Assembly (NCBI GenBank): GCA_035495555.1 | Contig: DATJFQ010000041.1 | Location: forward strand, 91,894 to 155,893 | Source: Vicinamibacterales bacterium | Lineage (GTDB): Bacteria; Acidobacteriota; Vicinamibacteria; Vicinamibacterales; 2-12-FULL-66-21 | Length of the DNA: 64,000 bases | Direction of reading: 5' to 3' | Shown: one piece after another, positions 1 to 59,425 of the stretch | Numbering within the stretch: the stretch's first letter is position 1 | How the letters are laid out: each line of letters starts with the position of its first letter | Position numbers and translations under genes: made by a program | The notes under the pieces: model-generated | What the model saw: only the letters and a program-made list of their open reading frames with translations | The model's database searches: none | What the model was told of the DNA's origin: nothing

Positions 1-276
1 CGCGCACCGGCGACGCTGCTGGCCGCCCGCACCGAGCGGACCGCGCCGACCGCCGTCGCATCGCGCTCGCTCGCGAGCGACGCCGAGCGGCCGACGGCCA
101 CGCACGCGTCCAACACGCAACTCACGCCGATCACCTATCGCGTCAAGCGCGGCGACACGCTCTCGTCAATCGCCGACCTTTTCGACACGACGGTGGCGAA
201 GATCAAATCGTGGAACCGGCTGCACTCGAACGCGGTCATGGCCGGGACGCGATTGAAGATCATGCGCGCGCGCTAA
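1..276 (+). CDS. LysM domain-containing protein, C-terminal fragment (5' end outside window)
   Basis: Frame 1 is open from base 1 to TAA at 274-276. The tail reads ITYRVKRGDTLSSIADLFDTTVAKIKSWNRLHSNAVMAGTRLKI, a textbook LysM peptidoglycan-binding motif. Confidence 0.75.
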   Translation, partial: RAPATLLAARTERTAPTAVASRSLASDAERPTATHASNTQLTPITYRVKRGDTLSSIADLFDTTVAKIKSWNRLHSNAVMAGTRLKIMRAR

Positions 277-295
277 GCGTCGCCGAGGCCGATCC

Positions 296-612
296 GTCTC
301 GCCCCCATCGTCAGTGATGGAGAGCGCCGCCCGCCGCACTCCGCACGCCACGCGCCGCGCGATGGGGCCCCTGCTCGGCTCCCAGTTCGTGCTCGGCGGC
401 CGGAAAGACGTGTCGACGGGAGGCGGCTCCGCGCGAGGCGCGGCCCAGCACCCGTCCGAGGCACCCAGCCTCCAGCACCCCGCGCGACGCGCGGCGCGCG
501 ATGGGGCCCAGCTCGGCCAGCTCCGCCTTCGCGCAGGTACAGAATCCGCTGCGCTCCGGCGCGATCTCGCCGAAGCCGCGTCGCGGAGGAGGCGGACCTC
601 AGTTCGTGCACG
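296..612 (-). repeat. Two-module GC-rich intergenic repeat element, reverse-oriented copy (cluster I)
   Basis: 507-596 is the reverse complement of module B seen at 2590-2680 (…gctccgccttcgcgcaggtacagaatccgctgcgctccggcgcgatctcgccgaagccgcgtcgcgg…). 381-470 matches reverse-complemented module A (…ttcgtgctcggcggccggaaagacgtgtcgacg…). Confidence 0.8.
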
Positions 613-759
613 TTCAGCGAATAGCAGAAAACACATCGGCCAGACGGCGCGTGGATCGCAACTTCCGCGCACAATCCGCAGCGGTCGTGAGCCGTCTCCG
701 TGATTTGCAAACAAAACCGCACGGCGCTGCCTGCGCTGCGGTCTTGCAATACCGCGGGC

Positions 760-2259
760 ATGCTCGCCTGCATCCGCTCCGCGGCCGTATACGGCATTGA
801 AGCGTCGACCGTCGCGATCGAAGTCGACGTCTCGTTCGGCCTCCCGGGATTTACCGTGGTCGGACTTCCCGACGCCAGCGTTCGCGAAAGCCGCGATCGG
901 ATCAAGAGTGCGATCCGAAACAGCGGCTTCACGTTTCCCCGGCATCGCATCATCGTCAATCTCGCTCCCGCTGATGTTCGCAAAGCGGGATCGTCGTTCG
1001 ATCTTCCAATTGCGCTGGGCGTGCTCGCGGCATCGGGCGCGATCACCCGACGCGATGTGGACGACGTGCTCGTGCTCGGTGAGCTGTCGCTGGATGGCGC
1101 GATTCAGCCGGCGCGTGGAGTGCTCCCAGTTGCGGCCGCGGCGCGATCGCGCAAGTTCAAGGGACTGCTGCTCCCCGAGGGCAACAGCCGTGAGGCAGCG
1201 GTCGTGGAGGGATTGGACTTCTATCCAGTGCGGTCGTTGACCGAGGCGGTGGACGCCATTAATCGTCCGAATCCGGTCGTCTTGACCTCCGAGCAGCAGG
1301 GGGAATCGACGGAAGCGTTGCACGGCGATTTCGCGGACGTCCGCGGTCAGTTGCTCGCTCGCAGAGCGCTGGAGATCGCCGCCGCGGGCGCCCACAACGT
1401 GCTGCTGTCGGGTGCGCCCGGGTCGGGCAAAACGATGATGGCCCGACGGACGGCTGGGATCCTGCCGCCGCTCACATTCGACGAGGCGCTCGAGGTCACG
1501 GCCATTCATTCGGTCGCCGGGCTCCTGCCGGACGGGCGGGGCCTTGTGCGTGCGCGGCCGTTCCGGGCGCCGCATCACACCGTGTCCGACATTGCGCTCG
1601 TCGGAGGCGGGTCGAATCCGCGTCCGGGAGAAATCAGCCTGGCGCATCAAGGTGTGTTGTTCCTCGACGAAATGCCGGAGTTCAGCCGGCACGTGCTGGA
1701 AGTGCTTCGTCAGCCGTTGGAAGACGGCATGGTGCGGATCGCACGCGCGCAGCGCACCTGCGAGTTTCCTGCACGCTTCGTGTTGATTGGCGCGATGAAC
1801 CCGTGCCCGTGCGGGTACCGTGGCCATGAGCGACGCGTCTGCCGATGTACGCCGCATCAGATTGCAGGATACGAATCGCGCCTTTCGGGACCGCTGCGCG
1901 ACCGGATCGATCTCACGGTCGGTGTCAGCGCGCTTCCCCCCGCGGAGCTGACCGGCGATGCGGCCGGCGAGTCGACGGCGGCTATCCGCGTGCGCGTGCA
2001 AGAAGCGAGGGCACGCCAGCAGGCGCGCCTCTCCGCAACAGGCGTTTCCGTGAACGCGCGCCTGGCGCCACGAATCCTCCGAACCGTCTGTGCGTTGGAT
2101 GCCGGCGCGTCACGCCTGCTCGCGACGGCTGCCGAGCGATTAGACCTGAGCGCCCGCGGCTACGACCGTATCCTCCGCGTCAGCCGCACAATCGCCGATC
2201 TCGCGGGCCAGGAGCGTGTGTCTGCCGATCACGTCGCGGAAGCTCTCCAGTTTCGTTAA
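760..2259 (+). CDS. comM: YifB/ComM family Mg-chelatase-like AAA+ ATPase
   Basis: ORF track 700..2259. Start moved to ATG 760 (MLACIRSAAVYGIEA…), the usual family N-terminus. Lon-protease-like N-domain, Walker A GAPGSGKTMMA, C-terminal RGYDRILRVSRTIADLAG. Confidence 0.9.
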   Translation: MLACIRSAAVYGIEASTVAIEVDVSFGLPGFTVVGLPDASVRESRDRIKSAIRNSGFTFPRHRIIVNLAPADVRKAGSSFDLPIALGVLAASGAITRRDVDDVLVLGELSLDGAIQPARGVLPVAAAARSRKFKGLLLPEGNSREAAVVEGLDFYPVRSLTEAVDAINRPNPVVLTSEQQGESTEALHGDFADVRGQLLARRALEIAAAGAHNVLLSGAPGSGKTMMARRTAGILPPLTFDEALEVTAIHSVAGLLPDGRGLVRARPFRAPHHTVSDIALVGGGSNPRPGEISLAHQGVLFLDEMPEFSRHVLEVLRQPLEDGMVRIARAQRTCEFPARFVLIGAMNPCPCGYRGHERRVCRCTPHQIAGYESRLSGPLRDRIDLTVGVSALPPAELTGDAAGESTAAIRVRVQEARARQQARLSATGVSVNARLAPRILRTVCALDAGASRLLATAAERLDLSARGYDRILRVSRTIADLAGQERVSADHVAEALQFR

Positions 2260-2299
2260 TGCCCTACGTCCGCGAGCACTGCGGGCGTACCTATCGCTT

Positions 2300-2862
2300 C
2301 GCGCCATCGCATCAGCGCGATGGGGGCCAGGACGGGGTGCCCCTGTTCGCGCGGAGGCGGCTCCCCGTCGACACGTCTTTCCCGCCGGCGAGCACGAAGG
2401 GGTCCGCCTCCGCCGCGACGCGGCTTCGGCGAGATCGCGCCGGAGCGCAGTGGATTCTGTGCCTGCGCGAAGGCGGAGCTGTCCGAGCTGGGCCCCATCG
2501 CATCAGCGCGATGCGGGCGAGGACGGGGCCCGCCCCGCTTCGCGCGGAGGCGGCTCCTCGTCGACATGTCTTTCCGGCCGCCGAGCACGAAGGGGGGGCC
2601 GCCTCCGCCGCGACGCGGCTTCGGCGAGATCGCGCCGGAGCGCAGCGGATTCTGTACCTGCGCGAAGGCGGAGCTGTCCGAGCGGGGTCCCCATCGCATC
2701 GCCAGCGATGGGGGCGAGGACGGGGCCGCCCCGCTTCGCGCGGAGGCGGCTCCTCGTCGACATGTCTTTTCGGCCGCCGAGCACGAAGGGGGGGTGTCCG
2801 AGCTGGGGCCCCATCGCATTGCCAGCGATCGGGGCGAGGACGGGGGCGCCGACGAGCATCCG
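2300..2862 (+). repeat. Tandem array (about 3.5 units) of the two-module repeat element (cluster II)
   Basis: The marker ccatcgcat recurs at 2304, 2495, 2691 and 2811 (spacings 191, 196, 120 nt). Module A starts with the hairpin CCCCATCGC-atcagc-GCGATGGGG and contains gtcgacatgtc. Module B (…ccgcgacgcggcttcggcgagatcgcgccggagcgcagcggattctgt…) is deleted from unit 3. The period is not a multiple of 3. Confidence 0.85.
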
Positions 2863-2898
2863 AGGCGTGGTGCGAGAAACGCGAGAGTGTCGGGCGCG

Positions 2899-5085
2899 CT
2901 AGCGATTGACAGCCTTCTCCGCCTTATCGGCCATCTTCGCTTTCGCCTGCGCCTGCTGCAGGTGCTGACGATAGAGCGCGTTCTGCGGCGCCATCTGTAC
3001 GGCGCGCTCGAACGCGGGTAACGCGTGGACGGGCAGATCCTTCTGCAGGTAGATGTACCCCAGCGTGTCCTGCGCCTCGGGACGATCGCGCATTTCCTCG
3101 GTCGCCACGGTCGCGTATCGGAGCGCGTCGTCGTACTTACCGTCCTCAGCCAGCATCCAGGCGAGGTTGTTCGCGGCAACGCCCGCTCGGGGATGCTTTG
3201 CGAGCACACTCTCGTACGCCGCGCGCGCGCCGGCTCGATCGCCTTTGGATTGGAGGATCATCCCCACCATCGTTGCCGCACCGGCGCTGTCCGGTGCGCG
3301 GTCCGCGAGCGCACGATAGCGCGCGAGCGCCGCGTCCACGTTGCCCTGGCGCAGATAGATCTGCCCGAGCATCTCGTAGGCTTCCAGACGGGAGGGATCG
3401 CGGCTGACGAGATCGGTAAGGCGGTGTTCGGCGTCCGCAGGCTTGTTCTCGAACAAATCGAGACGGGCAGCGAGCGTGACGACTGTCGCATCGTGCGGGG
3501 TTGCCTGGAGCCATCCGTTCACGCGCGCGCGAGCGCTGGCGACGTCCTTCGCGGCGACATCGGCCGTGACGGCCCCGACCCGCGCCTCGTCGTAGGACGG
3601 AGCGGCGGCCAGCGCCGTCTTGAAGGCCGCGCGCGCCGGGTCGACCTGCCGCGCCGCGAGATTGACCCACCCAAGTTCCGTCTGCAGCCGGGGATCTTTG
3701 GGGGCCGTCCGCAGCCGCGTCTCCAGCTCGCGCTTCGCGCGATCGAGATCACCCTGCGCGCGCAGACTCCGCGCGAGCAGCACGGCAGCCTCGATATCGT
3801 TCGGCCGCTGAGAGGCCGCCTGTTCTGCCGCGCTGACCGCGCCGGCGGCGTCCCCCTTTGCGAGTTGGAGCCGGGCGAGTTGCAGACTCGCGGCCGCCGC
3901 TCGCGGGTTCAGCTTCAGGGTCTGATTGAACGCCGATTCGGCGCCGTCGATATCGCGTCGTGCCAGCGCCACGAGGCCGACGGTGTAGGCCGCAGCCGTC
4001 GACGAGTTGTCGTCCTTTACCCCTTCCTGCGCTTCCTTCCAGGCCTGATCCAGATCCTTGTGCTGCGCGAGCAGGAGACGCGCTTTGAGCACGTGCGGCT
4101 CTGAATCTTTTGGATGGTCGTGAATCACAGCGTCGGTAATGTCGAGCGCCTCGTCGCCCTTCCCTTGCGACTGCTTGATCGCCGCAATCCGCAACTGCGC
4201 GTCGCGCATGATGCGCTTCTTCCCGGAAATGCCGTTCAGCACGCGCAGCGCATCTTCCGGCCTGTGCATGCCGGTGTAGTAGTCGGCGAGCGCAAGCGCG
4301 CCGTCAGGCGACATCGAGGCGAGCGCCTTGAAGTGCGGCTCCGCCTCCGTGGGACGGCGGGTATTCAGATAGAAGAGGGCGAGCGCGCGCCGCGTGAGCG
4401 GATTGTTCGCATCGAGCTGCAGCGCCGTGTTCAACTCCCGCTCCGTCCCGGCCGGATCGCTGCTGGCCCAGTCGAAGTTGGCGAGCGCCAGATGCGCCTC
4501 CACCGATTTCGGATCGAGGTCGATCGCTTTCTGGAACGACTGCTTCGCGGCGTCCTTTGCGCCCGATCGGAATTGAATCGCGCCCAGCGCCGAATACGCG
4601 GGTGCGTTGTCCGGATCGAGCGCGACCGCCTGCTCCATCTGCTTGATCGCGCGGCTCGTATCGTTGAGGCCCGCGAGCGCGTTTCCGAGCAGGATGTGGC
4701 CGGTCGCGCTGTTGGGGTCCGATTTGAGCGCCAGCTCGGCGCGCGACCTGGCCTCCTCGAACTGCCCGCCCAGCAGAAGCAGCGTCCCGGCCTCGACCTG
4801 CGCGTCGATATTCGACGGATCCAGATCGGCCGCCTGCGCGTATTCGCCGTACGCCTTCACCGGGTCGTTCGACGCCGTGTAGATCTTCGCGAGCTTGTAG
4901 TGCAGATCCGCCCGTGTCGGCAGGCCTTTCAGCGCGTTGCGGTACTCGATTGACGCCTCGGTGAGCTTGTGTTGCGCTGCGTAAGCGTCGCCCTGCCGCG
5001 CGTGCTTCTCCGCGGTCTGAATCGGATCCTGGCGACACGCGGCAACGAGGAGCGCCGCGCACACGATGAGTGCACGTCGAGTCAT
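2899..5085 (-). CDS. TPR-repeat lipoprotein, PrsT-like (PEP-CTERM system associated)
   Basis: 728-aa ORF with lipoprotein signal MTRRALIVCAALLVAAC. TPR-like repeats run throughout (…AIDLDPKSVEAHLALA…, …ALKSDPNSATGHILLG…). ATGA overlap with the upstream EpsI gene; last gene of the exosortase operon. Confidence 0.8.
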   Translation of the reverse strand: MTRRALIVCAALLVAACRQDPIQTAEKHARQGDAYAAQHKLTEASIEYRNALKGLPTRADLHYKLAKIYTASNDPVKAYGEYAQAADLDPSNIDAQVEAGTLLLLGGQFEEARSRAELALKSDPNSATGHILLGNALAGLNDTSRAIKQMEQAVALDPDNAPAYSALGAIQFRSGAKDAAKQSFQKAIDLDPKSVEAHLALANFDWASSDPAGTERELNTALQLDANNPLTRRALALFYLNTRRPTEAEPHFKALASMSPDGALALADYYTGMHRPEDALRVLNGISGKKRIMRDAQLRIAAIKQSQGKGDEALDITDAVIHDHPKDSEPHVLKARLLLAQHKDLDQAWKEAQEGVKDDNSSTAAAYTVGLVALARRDIDGAESAFNQTLKLNPRAAAASLQLARLQLAKGDAAGAVSAAEQAASQRPNDIEAAVLLARSLRAQGDLDRAKRELETRLRTAPKDPRLQTELGWVNLAARQVDPARAAFKTALAAAPSYDEARVGAVTADVAAKDVASARARVNGWLQATPHDATVVTLAARLDLFENKPADAEHRLTDLVSRDPSRLEAYEMLGQIYLRQGNVDAALARYRALADRAPDSAGAATMVGMILQSKGDRAGARAAYESVLAKHPRAGVAANNLAWMLAEDGKYDDALRYATVATEEMRDRPEAQDTLGYIYLQKDLPVHALPAFERAVQMAPQNALYRQHLQQAQAKAKMADKAEKAVNR

Positions 5086-5711
5086 GGGAGATAGGCGGTG
5101 AGGCGCGGCGCGATGCCGCGGGAGAACTCGGCGGCCGCGCGGTCAGCGATGCCGGGCTGCCGCGGCGGCTGCGGAACGACGATGCGGACGAGCGAGCCGT
5201 TCGTGCGGTGCAGCCGCGCGGCATCCAGCATCAGCCAGAACTTGTTCGCGTAGTCGTTCGCGACGATACGGCCGCGGCCCTGATACCAGTAGTAGACGAC
5301 CTGACGACGAAGCGACTTCTCGATGACGTACCGATTCACCGGAAACGTGCGCCCGCCCGCGGTCAGTTGAATGCGAGACGCTTCGACCGGCTGCCATCCC
5401 GATCCGGGCAGGCAGTTCTGCGGCGAATGAATGGTGGTGCCCTGACGCTGGCTCGCGTAATACCCGATGTACAGATTCAGCGGCAGCCCCGCGCGGTCCA
5501 CGTAGGTGCGGTTGACGTACTCATCGACGCCGAGCACCTGGAGCACGTCGTCGTCCAGCGGCTCCTCGCCTCCCGATCGCCACTCGCCGATCTGGCTTGG
5601 GAAGTTCGCGAGAGACTGTCGCGCGACCACCACCTCATGTCCACTCAGCCGAGTGCCGAACAGTCCGACGAAGACGATGAGCGATGCGAGAATCGCGGCG
5701 CGGGTGGTCAT
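5082..5711 (-). CDS. epsI: EpsI family exosortase-associated protein
   Basis: Internal start MTTRAAILASLIVFVGLF (ATG 5711) of ORF 5082..6482. N-terminal membrane anchor and family-typical motif TIHSPQNCLPGSGW. 4-nt overlaps with both neighbours. Confidence 0.8.
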   Translation of the reverse strand: MTTRAAILASLIVFVGLFGTRLSGHEVVVARQSLANFPSQIGEWRSGGEEPLDDDVLQVLGVDEYVNRTYVDRAGLPLNLYIGYYASQRQGTTIHSPQNCLPGSGWQPVEASRIQLTAGGRTFPVNRYVIEKSLRRQVVYYWYQGRGRIVANDYANKFWLMLDAARLHRTNGSLVRIVVPQPPRQPGIADRAAAEFSRGIAPRLTAYLP

Positions 5712-6574
5712 CGCGCTGGCACCGGCGCGCTGGTCCAGATGCGTGACTTCTGCGAGCCGACGGCGGCCAGCGCCCGCTGCGCGCCGAGCAGCAGCACGAA
5801 GGCCACGACGAACATCAACCAGCCGGAGAACGTGTGGAAGAACCCCTCGGCGGCGCGCGCGCCAACATAGCTGGCAAGGAGCCCCGTGCCCGCCACGCGC
5901 GCGGCGTTGGCGGCGATCGCCACCGGCACGGTGAGCAGTGCGAGTACGAGACGCGCCCAGCGCCGCGGCTCGCGCATCTTGCCGAGGATCACGCCTAACG
6001 TCAGGAGTGAGATCAGCGATCGAATTCCGCTGCACGCCTGCGCCACTTCCAGCGTCGTGGTCGGCAGCACCAGAATGTTGCCTTCCCGGAGCACCGGCAC
6101 GCCGGCCATCGTGAGGACGTTTTCTCCCGCTCGGGACGCGACCAACTGGAGCGGAAACGCAATCTGATTGAAAAGGACCGCGGGTAGTGGCACCGCGAGC
6201 ACGAGGAACGCAATCGGAAACGCGAGCAGCCGCAGCCACCGCCAGCCGCAGATGAACAGCACCGAGCCGGCGATGACGCCGATGAGCGACATGCGCGTGA
6301 GGAACAAGTCGGCGCCGAACAGTCCCGCGAGCAGCACCACCAGGCTGAGGCCGACGACGGCCAGACCGGTATTCGACGGCGCGAGCGGCGCCCGCTCGAG
6401 CGCAGACCGCTGCTGCCAGACGAACCACAAAGCGAACGGCACGATCAGAAAGCCGTGAGAATAGTTCTCGTCGCTCGCCCACTGTCTTACGAGCGACGAG
6501 ATCGTTGGCGTATAGACGACGGCGATGGACGCGGCGACGAGTCCAATCGCGACCAGTGGCCGTCGGTGTGTCAT
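5708..6574 (-). CDS. Exosortase (EpsH/Xrt family transpeptidase)
   Basis: Internal start MTHRRPLVAIGLVAAS (ATG 6574) of ORF 5708..6877. Polytopic. Family motifs: SDENYSHGFLIVP, catalytic-type ACSGIRSL (Cys), AANAARV (Arg), FHTFSGW (His). Confidence 0.9.
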   Translation of the reverse strand: MTHRRPLVAIGLVAASIAVVYTPTISSLVRQWASDENYSHGFLIVPFALWFVWQQRSALERAPLAPSNTGLAVVGLSLVVLLAGLFGADLFLTRMSLIGVIAGSVLFICGWRWLRLLAFPIAFLVLAVPLPAVLFNQIAFPLQLVASRAGENVLTMAGVPVLREGNILVLPTTTLEVAQACSGIRSLISLLTLGVILGKMREPRRWARLVLALLTVPVAIAANAARVAGTGLLASYVGARAAEGFFHTFSGWLMFVVAFVLLLGAQRALAAVGSQKSRIWTSAPVPAR

Positions 6575-7275
6575 CGAACGAGGCTGCCCTTCTTCGAACG
6601 GAAGCGCGTCAGCCACGCGGCGCCCGTTCCGAGCAGGAGCAGCGATGCGGGCTCCGGCGTTTTCCCGGCGTCCGGCGACCCGCCATCGACGCTGAGACGA
6701 ACCAGGAATCCGCGTCCCCCCGAGTTGTCGCGAAGGCCGAACATCACCATCGCCGCGCTTCCAGCCGTGAAGTTGCTGAACTGGAGCATGTCGCGCGCGT
6801 TGGAGTCTTCGTCGACGAACAGCGCGGCGGTTCCCCCCGTGGTGAAGGTGGCGCTCCGCTCCAGGCCCGCGTTCCACGCGAAGCTCAAACCGTCCGTGTT
6901 GTTCGATGTCGAGAATCCCGAGAGCACGTAGTCCGGCTGCGGCTGCGGATCTTCCGCATCGAACCCGTCGGACAACGGATCGAGAATCTCAGCGGTAATC
7001 GTCGTCCATGGCTGACTGGCAGGGTCCAGCGCCTTGAACGCAAAGTAGTAATTGCCGTGCGGTGCCAGGCCATCGATCAGGATGAACGCCTGTGAGCCGC
7101 CGTTGAAGGTAATGTTGTCGAGATTGATCACCGGTCCGTTGACGCTGAACTGGCTCTGGTCGGCTGATACACCCGACGACGCCGAATAGAGCGCTGCAAC
7201 CGGATCCGCCCGCGCCTCTGCCGGCGCGAACGCGATGACACACGCCAGCCCGCAGGCCAGAGTGGCTAGCCGCAT
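6571..7275 (-). CDS. PEP-CTERM sorting-domain secreted protein
   Basis: Start ATG 7275 with SD GGGAGG. Signal peptide MRLATLACGLACVIAFAPAEA. C-terminus TPEPASLLLLGTGAAWLTRFRSKK (PEP motif, TM helix, basic cluster). ATGA overlap with the exosortase start. Confidence 0.85.
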   Translation of the reverse strand: MRLATLACGLACVIAFAPAEARADPVAALYSASSGVSADQSQFSVNGPVINLDNITFNGGSQAFILIDGLAPHGNYYFAFKALDPASQPWTTITAEILDPLSDGFDAEDPQPQPDYVLSGFSTSNNTDGLSFAWNAGLERSATFTTGGTAALFVDEDSNARDMLQFSNFTAGSAAMVMFGLRDNSGGRGFLVRLSVDGGSPDAGKTPEPASLLLLGTGAAWLTRFRSKKGSLVR

Positions 7276-45211: not shown

Positions 45212-45295
45212 CAGGTCCGAAGATAGCCCGAGCGCGGCACGCGGGTCAAAGGGACCAGTTCTGTCGAACGCGGGCGGCGCCTGGACGGAGCGGCG

Positions 45296-45478
45296 ACGGG
45301 GCCCCCGCTCGGACAGCTCCGCCTTCGCGCAGCTCGGCGAGACCTCGCCGGAGCCGCTACGCGGCGTCGGCGGGCCACCTTCGTGCTCAGCGGCCCGAAA
45401 GACATGTCGACGAGGAGCCGCTTCCGCGCGAAGCTGGGCGCCCCGTCCTCGCCCCCATCGCCCTGATGCGCGGCGCGG
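45296..45478 (-). repeat. Third copy (reverse orientation, shortened module B) of the two-module repeat element
   Basis: …gctcggacagctccgccttcgcgcag…, then …ccttcgtgctcagcggcccgaaagacatgtcgacgaggagccgcttccgcgcgaag…gtcctcgcccccatcgc, matching reverse-complemented units at 2495-2810. Confidence 0.8.
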
Positions 45479-45542
45479 GCGCCGCCTGCACGGAGCGGCA
45501 AGGGCGTCGCATTGGGCGCTCAGCATCAGAAGTTTCGAAAAA

Positions 45543-45958
45543 GCGTCGCAGCACGCCGTAAGCCGAATTCTGTCCGCCTTCGCGCCCTGACGGGCGCTCC
45601 GGCGTGACGATCATTCCTCTAGCCCCGCCATTGCTGGCGGGATCAAGCAGCCTACCCGGAGACCTTGAACGGGCCGTTCTCGAGCGTCCCCCTATTTGGC
45701 TTTGCTCCGTGCGGGGTTTTGCCTGCCGTCCCTGTTACCAGGCACGCGGTGCGCTCTTACCGCACCTTTTCACCCTTACCCGCGTTCGCCCCAGGCTCGA
45801 GAGCCGAGAGCACACACGGGCGGTATGTTTTCTGTGCCACTTTCCTTCGAGTTGCCCCGACCGGGCGTTACCCGGCGCACTGCCCTGCGGAGTTCGGACT
45901 TTCCTCCCGCCTTCGCGCGTCGCGCGAACGCGGACGATCGTCTGTCGTACTGCGACGC
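45543..45958 (-). ncRNA. rnpB: RNase P RNA, bacterial type A
   Basis: The minus strand carries these motifs: GAGGAAAGTCCGAACTCCGCAGGGCAG; GGGTGAAAAGGTGCGGTAAGAGCGCACCG; CAGGCAAAACCCCGCACGGAGCAA; ACAGAATTCGGCTTACGG. The P1 helix pairs GCGTCGCAG (5' end) with CTGCGACGC (3' end), followed by TTTTT. Confidence 0.95.
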
Positions 45959-48947: not shown

Positions 48948-48977
48948 TTCTGAATTCCGACTTCTGAATTCCGACTT

Positions 48978-48979
<2 letters not shown>
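48948..48979. repeat. Tandem 14-mer TTCTGAATTCCGAC x2 (plus a partial third) filling the ligA-htrA spacer
   Basis: 48948-48961 and 48962-48975 are identical, followed by ttct. Each copy contains an EcoRI-type GAATTC palindrome. Confidence 0.85.
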
Positions 48980-57683: not shown

Positions 57684-57733
57684 TCGGCTTCGCGCGGGGT
57701 GCTTGGGGCTGGGTACCTCGGATGGGTGCTGGG

Positions 57734-58522
57734 TCAGTACGGCCAGCTGCAATCGAACAACACTTCAGCCGAGCCGGTGAGGTAAAGCCCATCGTCTCGC
57801 CACTCGACGCGCTGGGTGCCGCCGGGGGAGACGACCTGCACATCGCGTACGGCGCCCCCGTACGCGATCGCGGCCACGGCCGCCGCGCATGCGCCGGTGC
57901 CGGACGCCTCGGTCGGACCCACGCCGCGTTCCCAGATGAGAATCCGCACCCGGTCCGCCGCTTCAACGGCGGCCAACTCCACGTTCGTGCCTGCCGGAAA
58001 GGACGGGTGCACCGCCAGCCGCCCGGCGACGTTGTGGAGCCGCTCGTTCGAGAGATCGCCGAGCACCACGCACTGCGGGTTGCCCACGCGCATCGTTATG
58101 GCCTCGACGCGTTCGCTCTCCAGCGCAATCACACGTCGCGCGACATCTTCCGGCTGGCCCATTGCGGCGCGAAACGTGAGGCGTCTCCCGTGGACGTCGA
58201 GCAACTCCAGCACCTTCGCGCCCGCGTCCGTTTCGATGATGACGATGGCGCCGACCGGCAGCTCGCGTTCGCCTGCGACGAGCGCCGCCAGGCAGCGGAC
58301 GCCGTTGCCGGACACCTCCGAGTAGCTGCCGTCGGCGTTCAGCAGATCCATCACGGCGCCCGACTCCGTCGGCCGGTGGACGATGACGCCGTCGGCGCCA
58401 ATGCCTCGATGGCGTTCGCACAGGTCACGCGTGAGCGCCGCGCGGTCCACGTCCCGCGGCAGGTCGCCCGCGTTGACGAGCAGGAAATCGTTTCCGTAGG
58501 CGTGCGCCTTGACGATCCTCAT
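57734..58522 (-). CDS. dapF: Diaminopimelate epimerase
   Basis: Internal start MRIVKAHAYGNDFLLV (ATG 58522). Catalytic Cys motifs SGNGVRC and SGTGACAAA. Confidence 0.92.
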   Translation of the reverse strand: MRIVKAHAYGNDFLLVNAGDLPRDVDRAALTRDLCERHRGIGADGVIVHRPTESGAVMDLLNADGSYSEVSGNGVRCLAALVAGERELPVGAIVIIETDAGAKVLELLDVHGRRLTFRAAMGQPEDVARRVIALESERVEAITMRVGNPQCVVLGDLSNERLHNVAGRLAVHPSFPAGTNVELAAVEAADRVRILIWERGVGPTEASGTGACAAAVAAIAYGGAVRDVQVVSPGGTQRVEWRDDGLYLTGSAEVLFDCSWPY

Positions 58523-59277: not shown

Positions 59278-59425
59278 GCAAAGATCTTAAGCAAAGATCT
59301 TAAGCAAAGATCCAAAGATCAAGAGCCAAAGACGTGATCTTTGCATCTTTGCGATCTTTGCCATCTTTGCCATCTTTGCCAGCTTTGCATCTTTGCGATC
59401 TTTGCGCGATGCTTGTGATCTTTGC
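59278..59425. repeat. Converging arrays of the octamer GCAAAGAT / ATCTTTGC filling a whole divergent intergenic region
   Basis: Top strand, 59278-59333: three perfect GCAAAGAT (two within 13-mers GCAAAGATCTTAA) plus two CCAAAGA(T/C) variants. 59337-59425: eight perfect ATCTTTGC at 8-9-nt spacing plus variants AGCTTTGC and ATGCTTG. Confidence 0.9.

Follow-up and report, generated by a model that had tools for sequence, protein, structure and literature searches.

A modular palindromic repeat arrayed between convergent genes in what is probably an uncultured soil Vicinamibacterales bacterium

What is the repeated, GC-rich DNA that fills most of the space between two convergent genes near the start of a 64-kb stretch of bacterial DNA (here "the window," meaning that stretch at its full length)? 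The array begins at position 2304 and ends at about 2850, between a ComM/YifB gene on the plus strand and a TPR protein gene on the minus strand, and it occupies most of the 640 nt from the ComM stop codon (2259) to the convergent TPR stop codon (2899). An earlier note on this DNA had placed a tandem array of about 3.5 units between convergent genes and had compared it with BIME/REP-type mosaics. Both the array and its setting were recovered here. Our answer, to which we give a probability of about 0.6, is that it represents one cluster of a palindromic repeat that is lineage-specific, non-coding, and non-autonomous, of the REPIN/BIME/ERIC/BOX/MITE kind. Below we consider the array itself, its unit, its other copies, and its predicted fold, and weigh other explanations where the evidence touches them.

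Repeat search and Tandem Repeats Finder agree with the claimed 3.5 units and spacings of 191, 196, and 120 nt. Tandem Repeats Finder reported a period of 195 with 2.5 copies, 92% matches, and a score of 824 over 2304 to 2794, and the repeat search gave start-to-start spacings of 191, 193/196, and 120 nt, with the final partial unit extending to ~2850. The 21-mer GCGATGGGGGCGAGGACGGGG occurs five times in the window at ≤3 mismatches and the 22-mer GCGAAGGCGGAGCTGTCCGAGC four times, against 0.00 expected in shuffles for each. Since such repeats break short-read assemblies, and since assemblies differ here (3.5 versus 4.5 units), repeat reads mis-joined into a false array had to be considered. 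Five independent metagenome assemblies from different samples (L001, L002, L003, L006, and L030; L numbers denote the loci compared with the window) nevertheless reproduce the array with its flanks at 99.7 to 99.9% identity and encode an identical ComM protein. An assembly artefact is therefore very improbable, and only the number of units that carry module A alone is uncertain. L001 and L030 agree with each other and have one extra A-only unit of 120/121 nt relative to the window, which is either a real copy-number polymorphism or the product of a collapse in one assembly.

Long open reading frames (ORFs) span the array in several frames, and in L001 a gene caller placed a 236-aa hypothetical protein over it, so that a gene for an Arg/Gly/Pro-rich repeat protein might be suspected. 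Codon-position composition argues against this reading, as GC at positions 1, 2, and 3 is flat across the array (0.70 to 0.78 in all six frames); in the flanking genes GC at position 2 is ~0.5 and at position 3 is 0.75 to 0.82. The 236-aa ORF has only five matches among 5.8 billion protein clusters, each a spurious ORF that overlies a different copy of the repeat in another frame or orientation. Furthermore, unit lengths (107 to 113 nt) differ by 1 to 6 nt rather than by multiples of 3, copies run in both directions, and the relative L035 lacks the region. The earlier argument from a period not divisible by 3 is sound for the 191- to 196-nt spacings but fails for that of 120 nt; its conclusion is upheld by the other tests. 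By these sequence criteria the repeat is non-coding, and we give the protein-coding alternative almost no credence.

We read the unit boundaries from isolated copies (L023, L034, L026, L032, L007, and the third cluster of the window, locus C). The basic unit so defined is an imperfect palindrome of ~113 nt, composed of a left terminus (GCGATGGGGGCGAGGAC), an internal hairpin A (GGGGCCGCCCCGCTTCGCGCGGAGGCGGCTCC - TCGTCGACAYGTCTTTCC - GGCCGCCGAGCACGAAGTGGGGC), and a right terminus (GTCCGAGCGGGGGCCCCATCGC, also written TGTCCGAGCGGGGGCCCCATCGC). The natural unit had previously been taken as an opening hairpin followed by modules A and B; a palindrome whose termini pair with each other takes its place. 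The opening hairpin, rather than beginning module A, is a junction at which the right terminus of a unit pairs with the left terminus of the following unit, and it is a perfect 9-bp stem, as had been claimed, at one junction only (2689 to 2697 with 2705 to 2713), the other three of four having 7 to 8 pairs. At the perfect junction, between units 2 and 3, the CCCCATCGC/GCGATGGGG stem is lengthened by GTCC/GGAC, and the resulting hairpin of ~47 nt, built from the ends of two units across a 7-nt spacer, has a predicted energy of -13.8 kcal/mol (z = -2.6). The palindrome GACATGTC ascribed to module A is missing in unit 1, which reads GACACGTC.

Neighboring units of the arrays are separated by spacers of 6 to 7 nt (ATCAGC, ATCGCCA, CTCACCA), and all array units are in direct orientation. 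Here, a partial right-terminus-like CCATCGC (2304 to 2310) and a spacer ATCAGC (2311 to 2316) precede unit 1, ATCAGC recurs between units 1 and 2 (2502 to 2507), ATCGCCA lies between units 2 and 3 (2698 to 2704), and ATTGCCA (2818 to 2824) precedes the partial unit 4. A CRISPR-like reading was rejected, given that the units abut with spacers of merely 6 to 7 nt.

Recurring linker modules turn the arrays into mosaics. Units measure 107 to 113 nt in the short form and 169 to 190 nt with module B, an optional segment of 75 to 85 nt that enters at one fixed point, between GAAGKGGG and CTGTCCGAGC, to give units of 185 to 190 nt in the array. (A permissive regular expression for module B gave noise, and a curated alignment was used in its place.) Module C, of ~80 nt, takes the place of the spacer in the window (444 to 498) and in L022, L012, L029, L019, and L013, the last of which contains a 1.6-kb intergenic region made wholly of these modules. 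We found units with A only, with A and B, with B only (L015), with neither (L009/L033), with a terminus only, and with module C. This range of types bears out the modular recombination that had been proposed from the lack of module B in unit 3, where the loss of the 75- to 85-nt module is indeed clean.

Is the unit confined to this gap? A blastn search with one unit against the window returned two further clusters, both inverted relative to the array. The first of these lies directly 3' of an SLT/LysM stop codon (275), upstream of ComM, and comprises a module B (511 to 595), the module-C-like segment (444 to 498), an A-core unit (359 to 471), and a terminal hairpin remnant (301 to 320). The other, a single unit with a shortened module B, shares its strand with the RNase P RNA gene, which ends ~80 nt upstream of it; that gene (bacterial class A, 283 bits) is at 45544 to 45953 on the minus strand. 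Finally, a lone module C lies in a ~50-nt gap between convergent genes. This copy is G-rich (GGGG..GGGG..GGG..GGG..GGG), and a G-quadruplex is conceivable.

Beyond the window, an A-core pattern matched 30 soil-metagenome contigs, which after removal of duplicates gave ~25 loci unrelated to the window. Extragenic copies thus stand at 4 loci in 64 kb plus ~25 metagenome loci, and the earlier comparison with BIME/REP mosaics is borne out as a likeness of kind. Many of the metagenome contigs terminate within the repeat, as expected for a multi-copy sequence. Only one contig among 185,579 species-representative genomes matched the A-core pattern (L004, JAICLH010000300.1, labelled Gemmatimonadaceae), from which the family is either very narrowly distributed or belongs to a lineage that is barely represented. 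That contig is 2.6 kb long and may be mis-binned, as the synteny of the window and its best ComM relatives point to Vicinamibacterales. No A-core match was obtained in viral contigs or plasmids.

Comparison with a relative bears on how the clusters arose. The nearest named relatives of the ComM protein are from Vicinamibacterales metagenome-assembled genomes (Acidobacteriota), at 77 to 85% identity, and one of these, L035 (ComM 85% identical), is syntenic with the window: LysM, ComM, and then convergent TPR, EpsI, and EpsH genes. Between ComM and TPR, L035 has 49 nt and the window 640; between LysM and ComM the figures are 175 and 485 nt, the second cluster region being missing from the L035 spacer. 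Given these short gaps, both clusters appear to be lineage-specific insertions. We conclude that the source lineage of the repeat is probably an uncultured soil bacterium of the Vicinamibacterales.

We aligned 23 distinct short units with MAFFT and used this alignment as the main basis for assessing structure. The RNAalifold consensus is one long hairpin of 32 pairs with the termini paired, and standard pairs are present in 96.9% of cells, against 31 to 46% in slid-register controls. Compensatory changes occur in five pairs, for a total of 10 cells versus 2.1 in column shuffles, and none of 500 shuffles reached 10. The clearest case is in the A stem, where G-C becomes A-U (GGAGGCGGC/GCCGCCGAG to GGAAGCGGC/GCCGCTGAG); one GC/AU covarying pair also holds in the wider set (GC 30, AU 10), and the module B stem GCGCAG/CTGCGC becomes GCGCAA/TTGCGC in three copies. 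A second alignment, fitted to the covariance model R1 that was built from the 23 units, gave 18 compensatory pairs, which is an overestimate because it was fitted to the structure and includes two reverse-strand palindrome matches. Judged from the alignment, covariation of pairing across units appears modest. Of the cells with non-Watson-Crick pairs, 51 have G.T on the unit's plus strand and only 3 have it on the other, an asymmetry that suggests that one particular strand would be the one that folds. Unit 3, the canonical short unit, is the window's best match to R1 (123 bits), and its predicted fold is one long hairpin with paired termini.

Pairing is retained where sequence is not. In the L026 and L032 subfamily the termini (GGGTGGGGGCGCGGAC/GTCCGCGCGGGGGCCCCACCC) have a different sequence with complementarity kept, and R1 also matched divergent hairpins of ~110 nt in L005 (9961 to 10071) and L019 (3359 to 3468). 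Both have quite different termini that are nevertheless mutually complementary (CGCGGGTGGTCGCGAAC/GTTCGCGGACAGGACCCGCG in L005). The L005 copy retains the apical CTCGTC.ACA.GTCTTTT motif; the L019 copy has a DNA fold z of -4.0. These hairpins suggest a wider superfamily that is common in architecture, not in sequence.

A paired, strand-biased structure might be kept by the host for its own use, as a stabilizer of 3' untranslated regions, a Rho-independent-like barrier between convergent genes, or a site for protein binding, roles of the sort put forward for E. coli REP/BIME. The compensatory changes and the near restriction of G.U pairs to one strand would fit such a role, as would the copy that directly follows the RNase P RNA gene on its strand and the location of about three quarters of the clusters at a gene 3' end or between convergent genes (with genes called crudely from GC3, ~17 of 22 clusters have a 3' end as their nearest gene end). 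However, a 3' bias is equally expected from selection against insertion into promoters, and orientation relative to the nearest gene is unbiased (5 versus 7 by the same calls) although the pairing is strand-biased. The clusters are also missing from the same intergenic sites of the syntenic relative, and unit number varies between strains. At the Rfam gathering score RNase P RNA is the only match in the window, with none in the array, which at an E-value threshold gives only chance-level miRNA-precursor matches (E = 0.7 to 7). A scan of 1 to 3200 found no T-run intrinsic terminators and no sigma-70-like promoters. We therefore consider a host-maintained function decidedly unlikely as the main explanation.

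If the repeat spreads, by what means would it do so? One candidate is a classical MITE, an internally deleted DDE insertion sequence moved by cut and paste through terminal inverted repeats of ~17 to 22 bp, with arrays formed by adjacent re-insertion. The imperfect inverted repeats at the termini agree with this, as do the size of 107 to 190 nt, the lack of coding, and the intergenic spread. On the other hand, the flanks of 31 units have no consistent direct repeat that could be a target-site duplication, the isolated units included (L023, L034, L026, L032, L007, and locus C), and the conserved 6 to 7 nt (TCASSR) that precede the left terminus do not recur 3' of isolated units. Termini that vary between subfamilies yet stay complementary fit a structure-recognizing system better than a sequence-specific one, and no longer element with the same ends, as expected of a parent insertion sequence, was found in the 285 kb made up of the window and 37 loci. 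A classical MITE is accordingly a possible but unlikely account.

We favor instead a repeat whose units would reach new sites through an enzyme supplied in trans that recognizes the folded single strand or the termini. By analogy, the most likely candidate would be a Y1/HUH transposase of the RAYT/TIRYT type, given that there is no target-site duplication, that subfamilies keep the hairpin while the sequence changes, and that pairing is strand-biased. Where units have become neighbors, replication slippage or unequal recombination would add or remove units and modules, with the repeated termini and short shared motifs such as GCGGAGGCGG, GAAGGCGGAG, and GCTTCGCGCGG as the likely substrates; this would explain both the 195/195/120 pattern and the additional 120-nt unit seen in other strains. 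We regard the element as probably selfish or neutral, and any effect on the 3' ends of neighboring transcripts would be secondary.

Several points weigh against this non-autonomous repeat reading. The RAYT/IS200-like transposase that the earlier note had proposed to look for did not appear: tblastn with E. coli RayT, eight published TIRYT/RAYT proteins, and 120 database proteins gave no match in the 285 kb, and Pfam found only housekeeping domains and no transposase among the ~30 ORFs of the window. In addition, a profile search for TIRYT homologues recovered at least 8,000 proteins from soil, of which none could be assigned to the source lineage. (The genes that repeats flank in L009 and L028, namely an ECF sigma/anti-sigma pair together with a HipA-like/DUF3037-like pair, are not transposases; the latter labels were read by eye from translations, with no domain search.) Movement is deduced from distribution rather than observed, and many units have half-hairpins at their flanks, which leaves the true limits of the mobile unit ambiguous. 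Single sequences fold modestly better than shuffles (z of -1.3 to -2.8), as expected at 75% G+C, and the covariation is carried by few positions in copies that are related by descent. Lastly, the metagenome copies were picked by exact match to the A core, whose apparent conservation is inflated for this reason.

Which known repeats does this one resemble? The ERIC/IRU elements of enterobacteria, reportedly the subject of work by Hulton in 1991, Sharples and Lloyd in 1990, and Wilson and Sharp in 2006, are imperfect palindromes of ~127 nt in which insertions of ~70 nt, or deletions, at fixed internal sites give size variants. The present unit is likewise an imperfect palindrome of about 110 to 130 nt that is intergenic in either orientation and takes an insertion, module B, at a fixed site; it has no sequence similarity to ERIC and comes from a different phylum, and head-to-tail arrays are rare among ERICs. 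BOX elements of Streptococcus pneumoniae, said to have been treated by Martin in 1992 and Croucher in 2011, are also modular (boxA, a variable number of boxB, and boxC), with an optional middle module, and are non-coding and dispersed with a predicted stable structure. They differ in having no sequence similarity, an AT-rich Firmicutes host, and a different module logic. The small noncoding repeats (SNRs) of Deinococcus radiodurans, reportedly described by Makarova in 2001, and other untagged REP-like families share GC-rich, mosaic, intergenic sequences of 60 to 215 bp with hairpin potential and no known transposase, but are unrelated in sequence and host. SNRs are mentioned in PMC3733652.

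The REP/BIME/REPIN sequences of E. coli and Pseudomonas are mobilized by RAYT (Y1/HUH) transposases (Nunvar 2010, PMC2817692; Bertels & Rainey 2011, PMC3116915; Di Nocera 2013, PMC3733652). Like them, the present repeats are extragenic, GC-rich palindromes, both dispersed and grouped with other motifs into mosaics, that lie mostly downstream of genes or between convergent genes; as in REPINs, inverted halves form one long hairpin, with termini that pair in every fold, and as in REP and REPIN there is no target-site duplication and subfamilies retain pairing. The differences are considerable. The unit is 113 to 190 nt rather than 20 to 40 bp, its halves are not short REP hairpins, and its consensus lacks GTAG and has no unpaired GTAG/CGTC head in the published sense. 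CGTC is present in the apical loop and, on the complementary strand, within the paired GTCC/GGAC extension, but published CGTC REPs have 8- to 9-bp stems starting with A-T pairs and loops of 4 to 5 nt, neither of which holds here. The array units are direct, whereas the REPs of BIMEs alternate in orientation, and the search of 285 kb turned up no RAYT gene. Membership of the REP/RAYT family proper is thus not shown, and the resemblance is one of kind.

A further comparison is with the RAYT-like TIRYT genes, which are flanked by long inverted repeats (TIRs) and include an Acidobacteria-specific group (PMC3733652). Common to both are an Acidobacteriota host and moderately abundant long inverted repeats that are sometimes self-complementary and are arranged in dimers or clusters. 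A G-rich motif, GGGGWSAS, is present in some of the published TIRs, and the termini here read GGGGGCGAGG; however, GGGGCGAG misfits that motif, having C at W, and the 285 kb yielded no TIRYT gene with these termini at its flanks. We propose a link to the TIRYT group as a hypothesis only.

A broader proposal, which we regard as a long shot, is that the repeat is the visible part of an as yet undescribed REPIN-like system in Vicinamibacteria, a superfamily of ~110-nt hairpins set by architecture, which would have its own HUH enzyme or would be structured RNA or single-stranded DNA with a host function. Its features, put forward equally speculatively, would be paired termini, the GGGGCGCCCC palindrome, the A stem, a conserved apical CTCGTC(G)ACAnGTCTTT loop, strand-specific pairing (G.T on one strand only), and modules B and C at fixed points.

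Table 1. Positions in the window of the repeat clusters, their parts, and the two genes that flank the array
Feature	Positions	Strand	Basis
Entire array: three full units plus a partial one, head to tail	2304..2850	+	Tandem Repeats Finder, repeat search, blastn module map
Unit 1, 185 nt: left terminus, hairpin A, module B, right terminus	2317..2501	+	Fuzzy terminus search, alignment
Unit 2, 190 nt: left terminus, A, B, right terminus	2508..2697	+	Alignment, blastn, terminus search
Unit 3, 113 nt: left terminus, A, right terminus, without module B; canonical short unit	2705..2817	+	
Partial unit 4: left terminus only (GCGATCGGGGCGAGGACGGGGGCGCC)	2825..2850	+	
Module B of unit 1: GCCGCGACGCGGC, GGCGAGATCGCGCC, stem GCGCAG...CTGCGC	2404..2488	+	blastn, curated module B alignment
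Module B of unit 2	2599..2683	+	blastn, curated module B alignment
Junction hairpin: unit 2 right terminus, 7-nt spacer, unit 3 left terminus	2676..2722	+	Fold, DNA parameters
ComM/YifB, Mg-chelatase-like AAA ATPase (flanking gene, not part of the element)	760..2259	+	Pfam domains, homologues
728-aa TPR protein of exosortase (EpsH/EpsI) locus (flanking gene, not part of the element)	2899..5085	-	
Second cluster	300..612	-	blastn, nhmmer, R1 match of 50 bits
Third cluster (locus C): single 169-nt unit with left terminus, A, shortened B, right terminus	45293..45461	-	blastn, R1 match of 82 bits
Lone module C (CTTCGCGCGGGGTGCTTGGGGCTGGGTACCTCGGATGGGTGCTGGG)	57686..57735	+	Window self-blastn

The TPR gene belongs to an exosortase locus at 2899 to 6900 of the window, with EpsH (exosortase), EpsI/DUF3485, and the 728-aa TPR protein, that is syntenic with L035, the Vicinamibacterales metagenome-assembled genome compared above; in the relative L037 the exosortase/TPR block is inverted relative to ComM. 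Other short repeats accompany the palindromic units or occur elsewhere in the window. A motif of ~26 nt, GCCGCTCCGTSCAGGCGSCGCCCGCG, stands on both sides of the locus C unit (45265 to 45292 and 45470 to 45500) and to the right of an unrelated unit in L034 (~5129 to 5155), and may be a further module or a preferred target. Long octamer arrays (GCGAGGCG/GGAGGCG) directly flank palindromic units in L009 (11930 to 12050) and also in L024, L033, L005, and L025. In the window itself, a tandem 13-mer GCAAAGATCTTAA (x2.7) and a 9-mer GATCTTTGC (x8.1) lie at 59278 to 59406, between divergent genes for a methyltransferase and a DAO-family oxidoreductase. This 9-mer array recurs, written (CGCAAAGAT)x8, at 15 to 86 of L013, where it adjoins the 1.6-kb module mosaic, and it may belong to the repeat repertoire of the organism. 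Also in the window, a perfect tandem 14-mer TTCTGAATTCCGAC (x2.3) lies at 48948 to 48979 in surroundings of 65 to 75% G+C.

Vicinamibacteria (Acidobacteriota) are abundant in soil and rarely cultured. Our literature search found no paper describing repeats of this kind in the group, and to our knowledge the small dispersed palindromic repeats familiar from Proteobacteria and a handful of other groups remain essentially undescribed there. On present evidence the finding raises no new question and would not surprise a specialist. Its practical consequences are that the repeat family breaks short-read assemblies and misleads gene callers, as with the spurious 236-aa hypothetical protein. Unit number, because it differs between 99.7%-identical strains, could serve as a marker for strain typing. 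The family could gain interest if a cognate enzyme or an RNA role were shown, and, only if such an enzyme is found, it would offer a test case for the persistence of REPIN-like populations.

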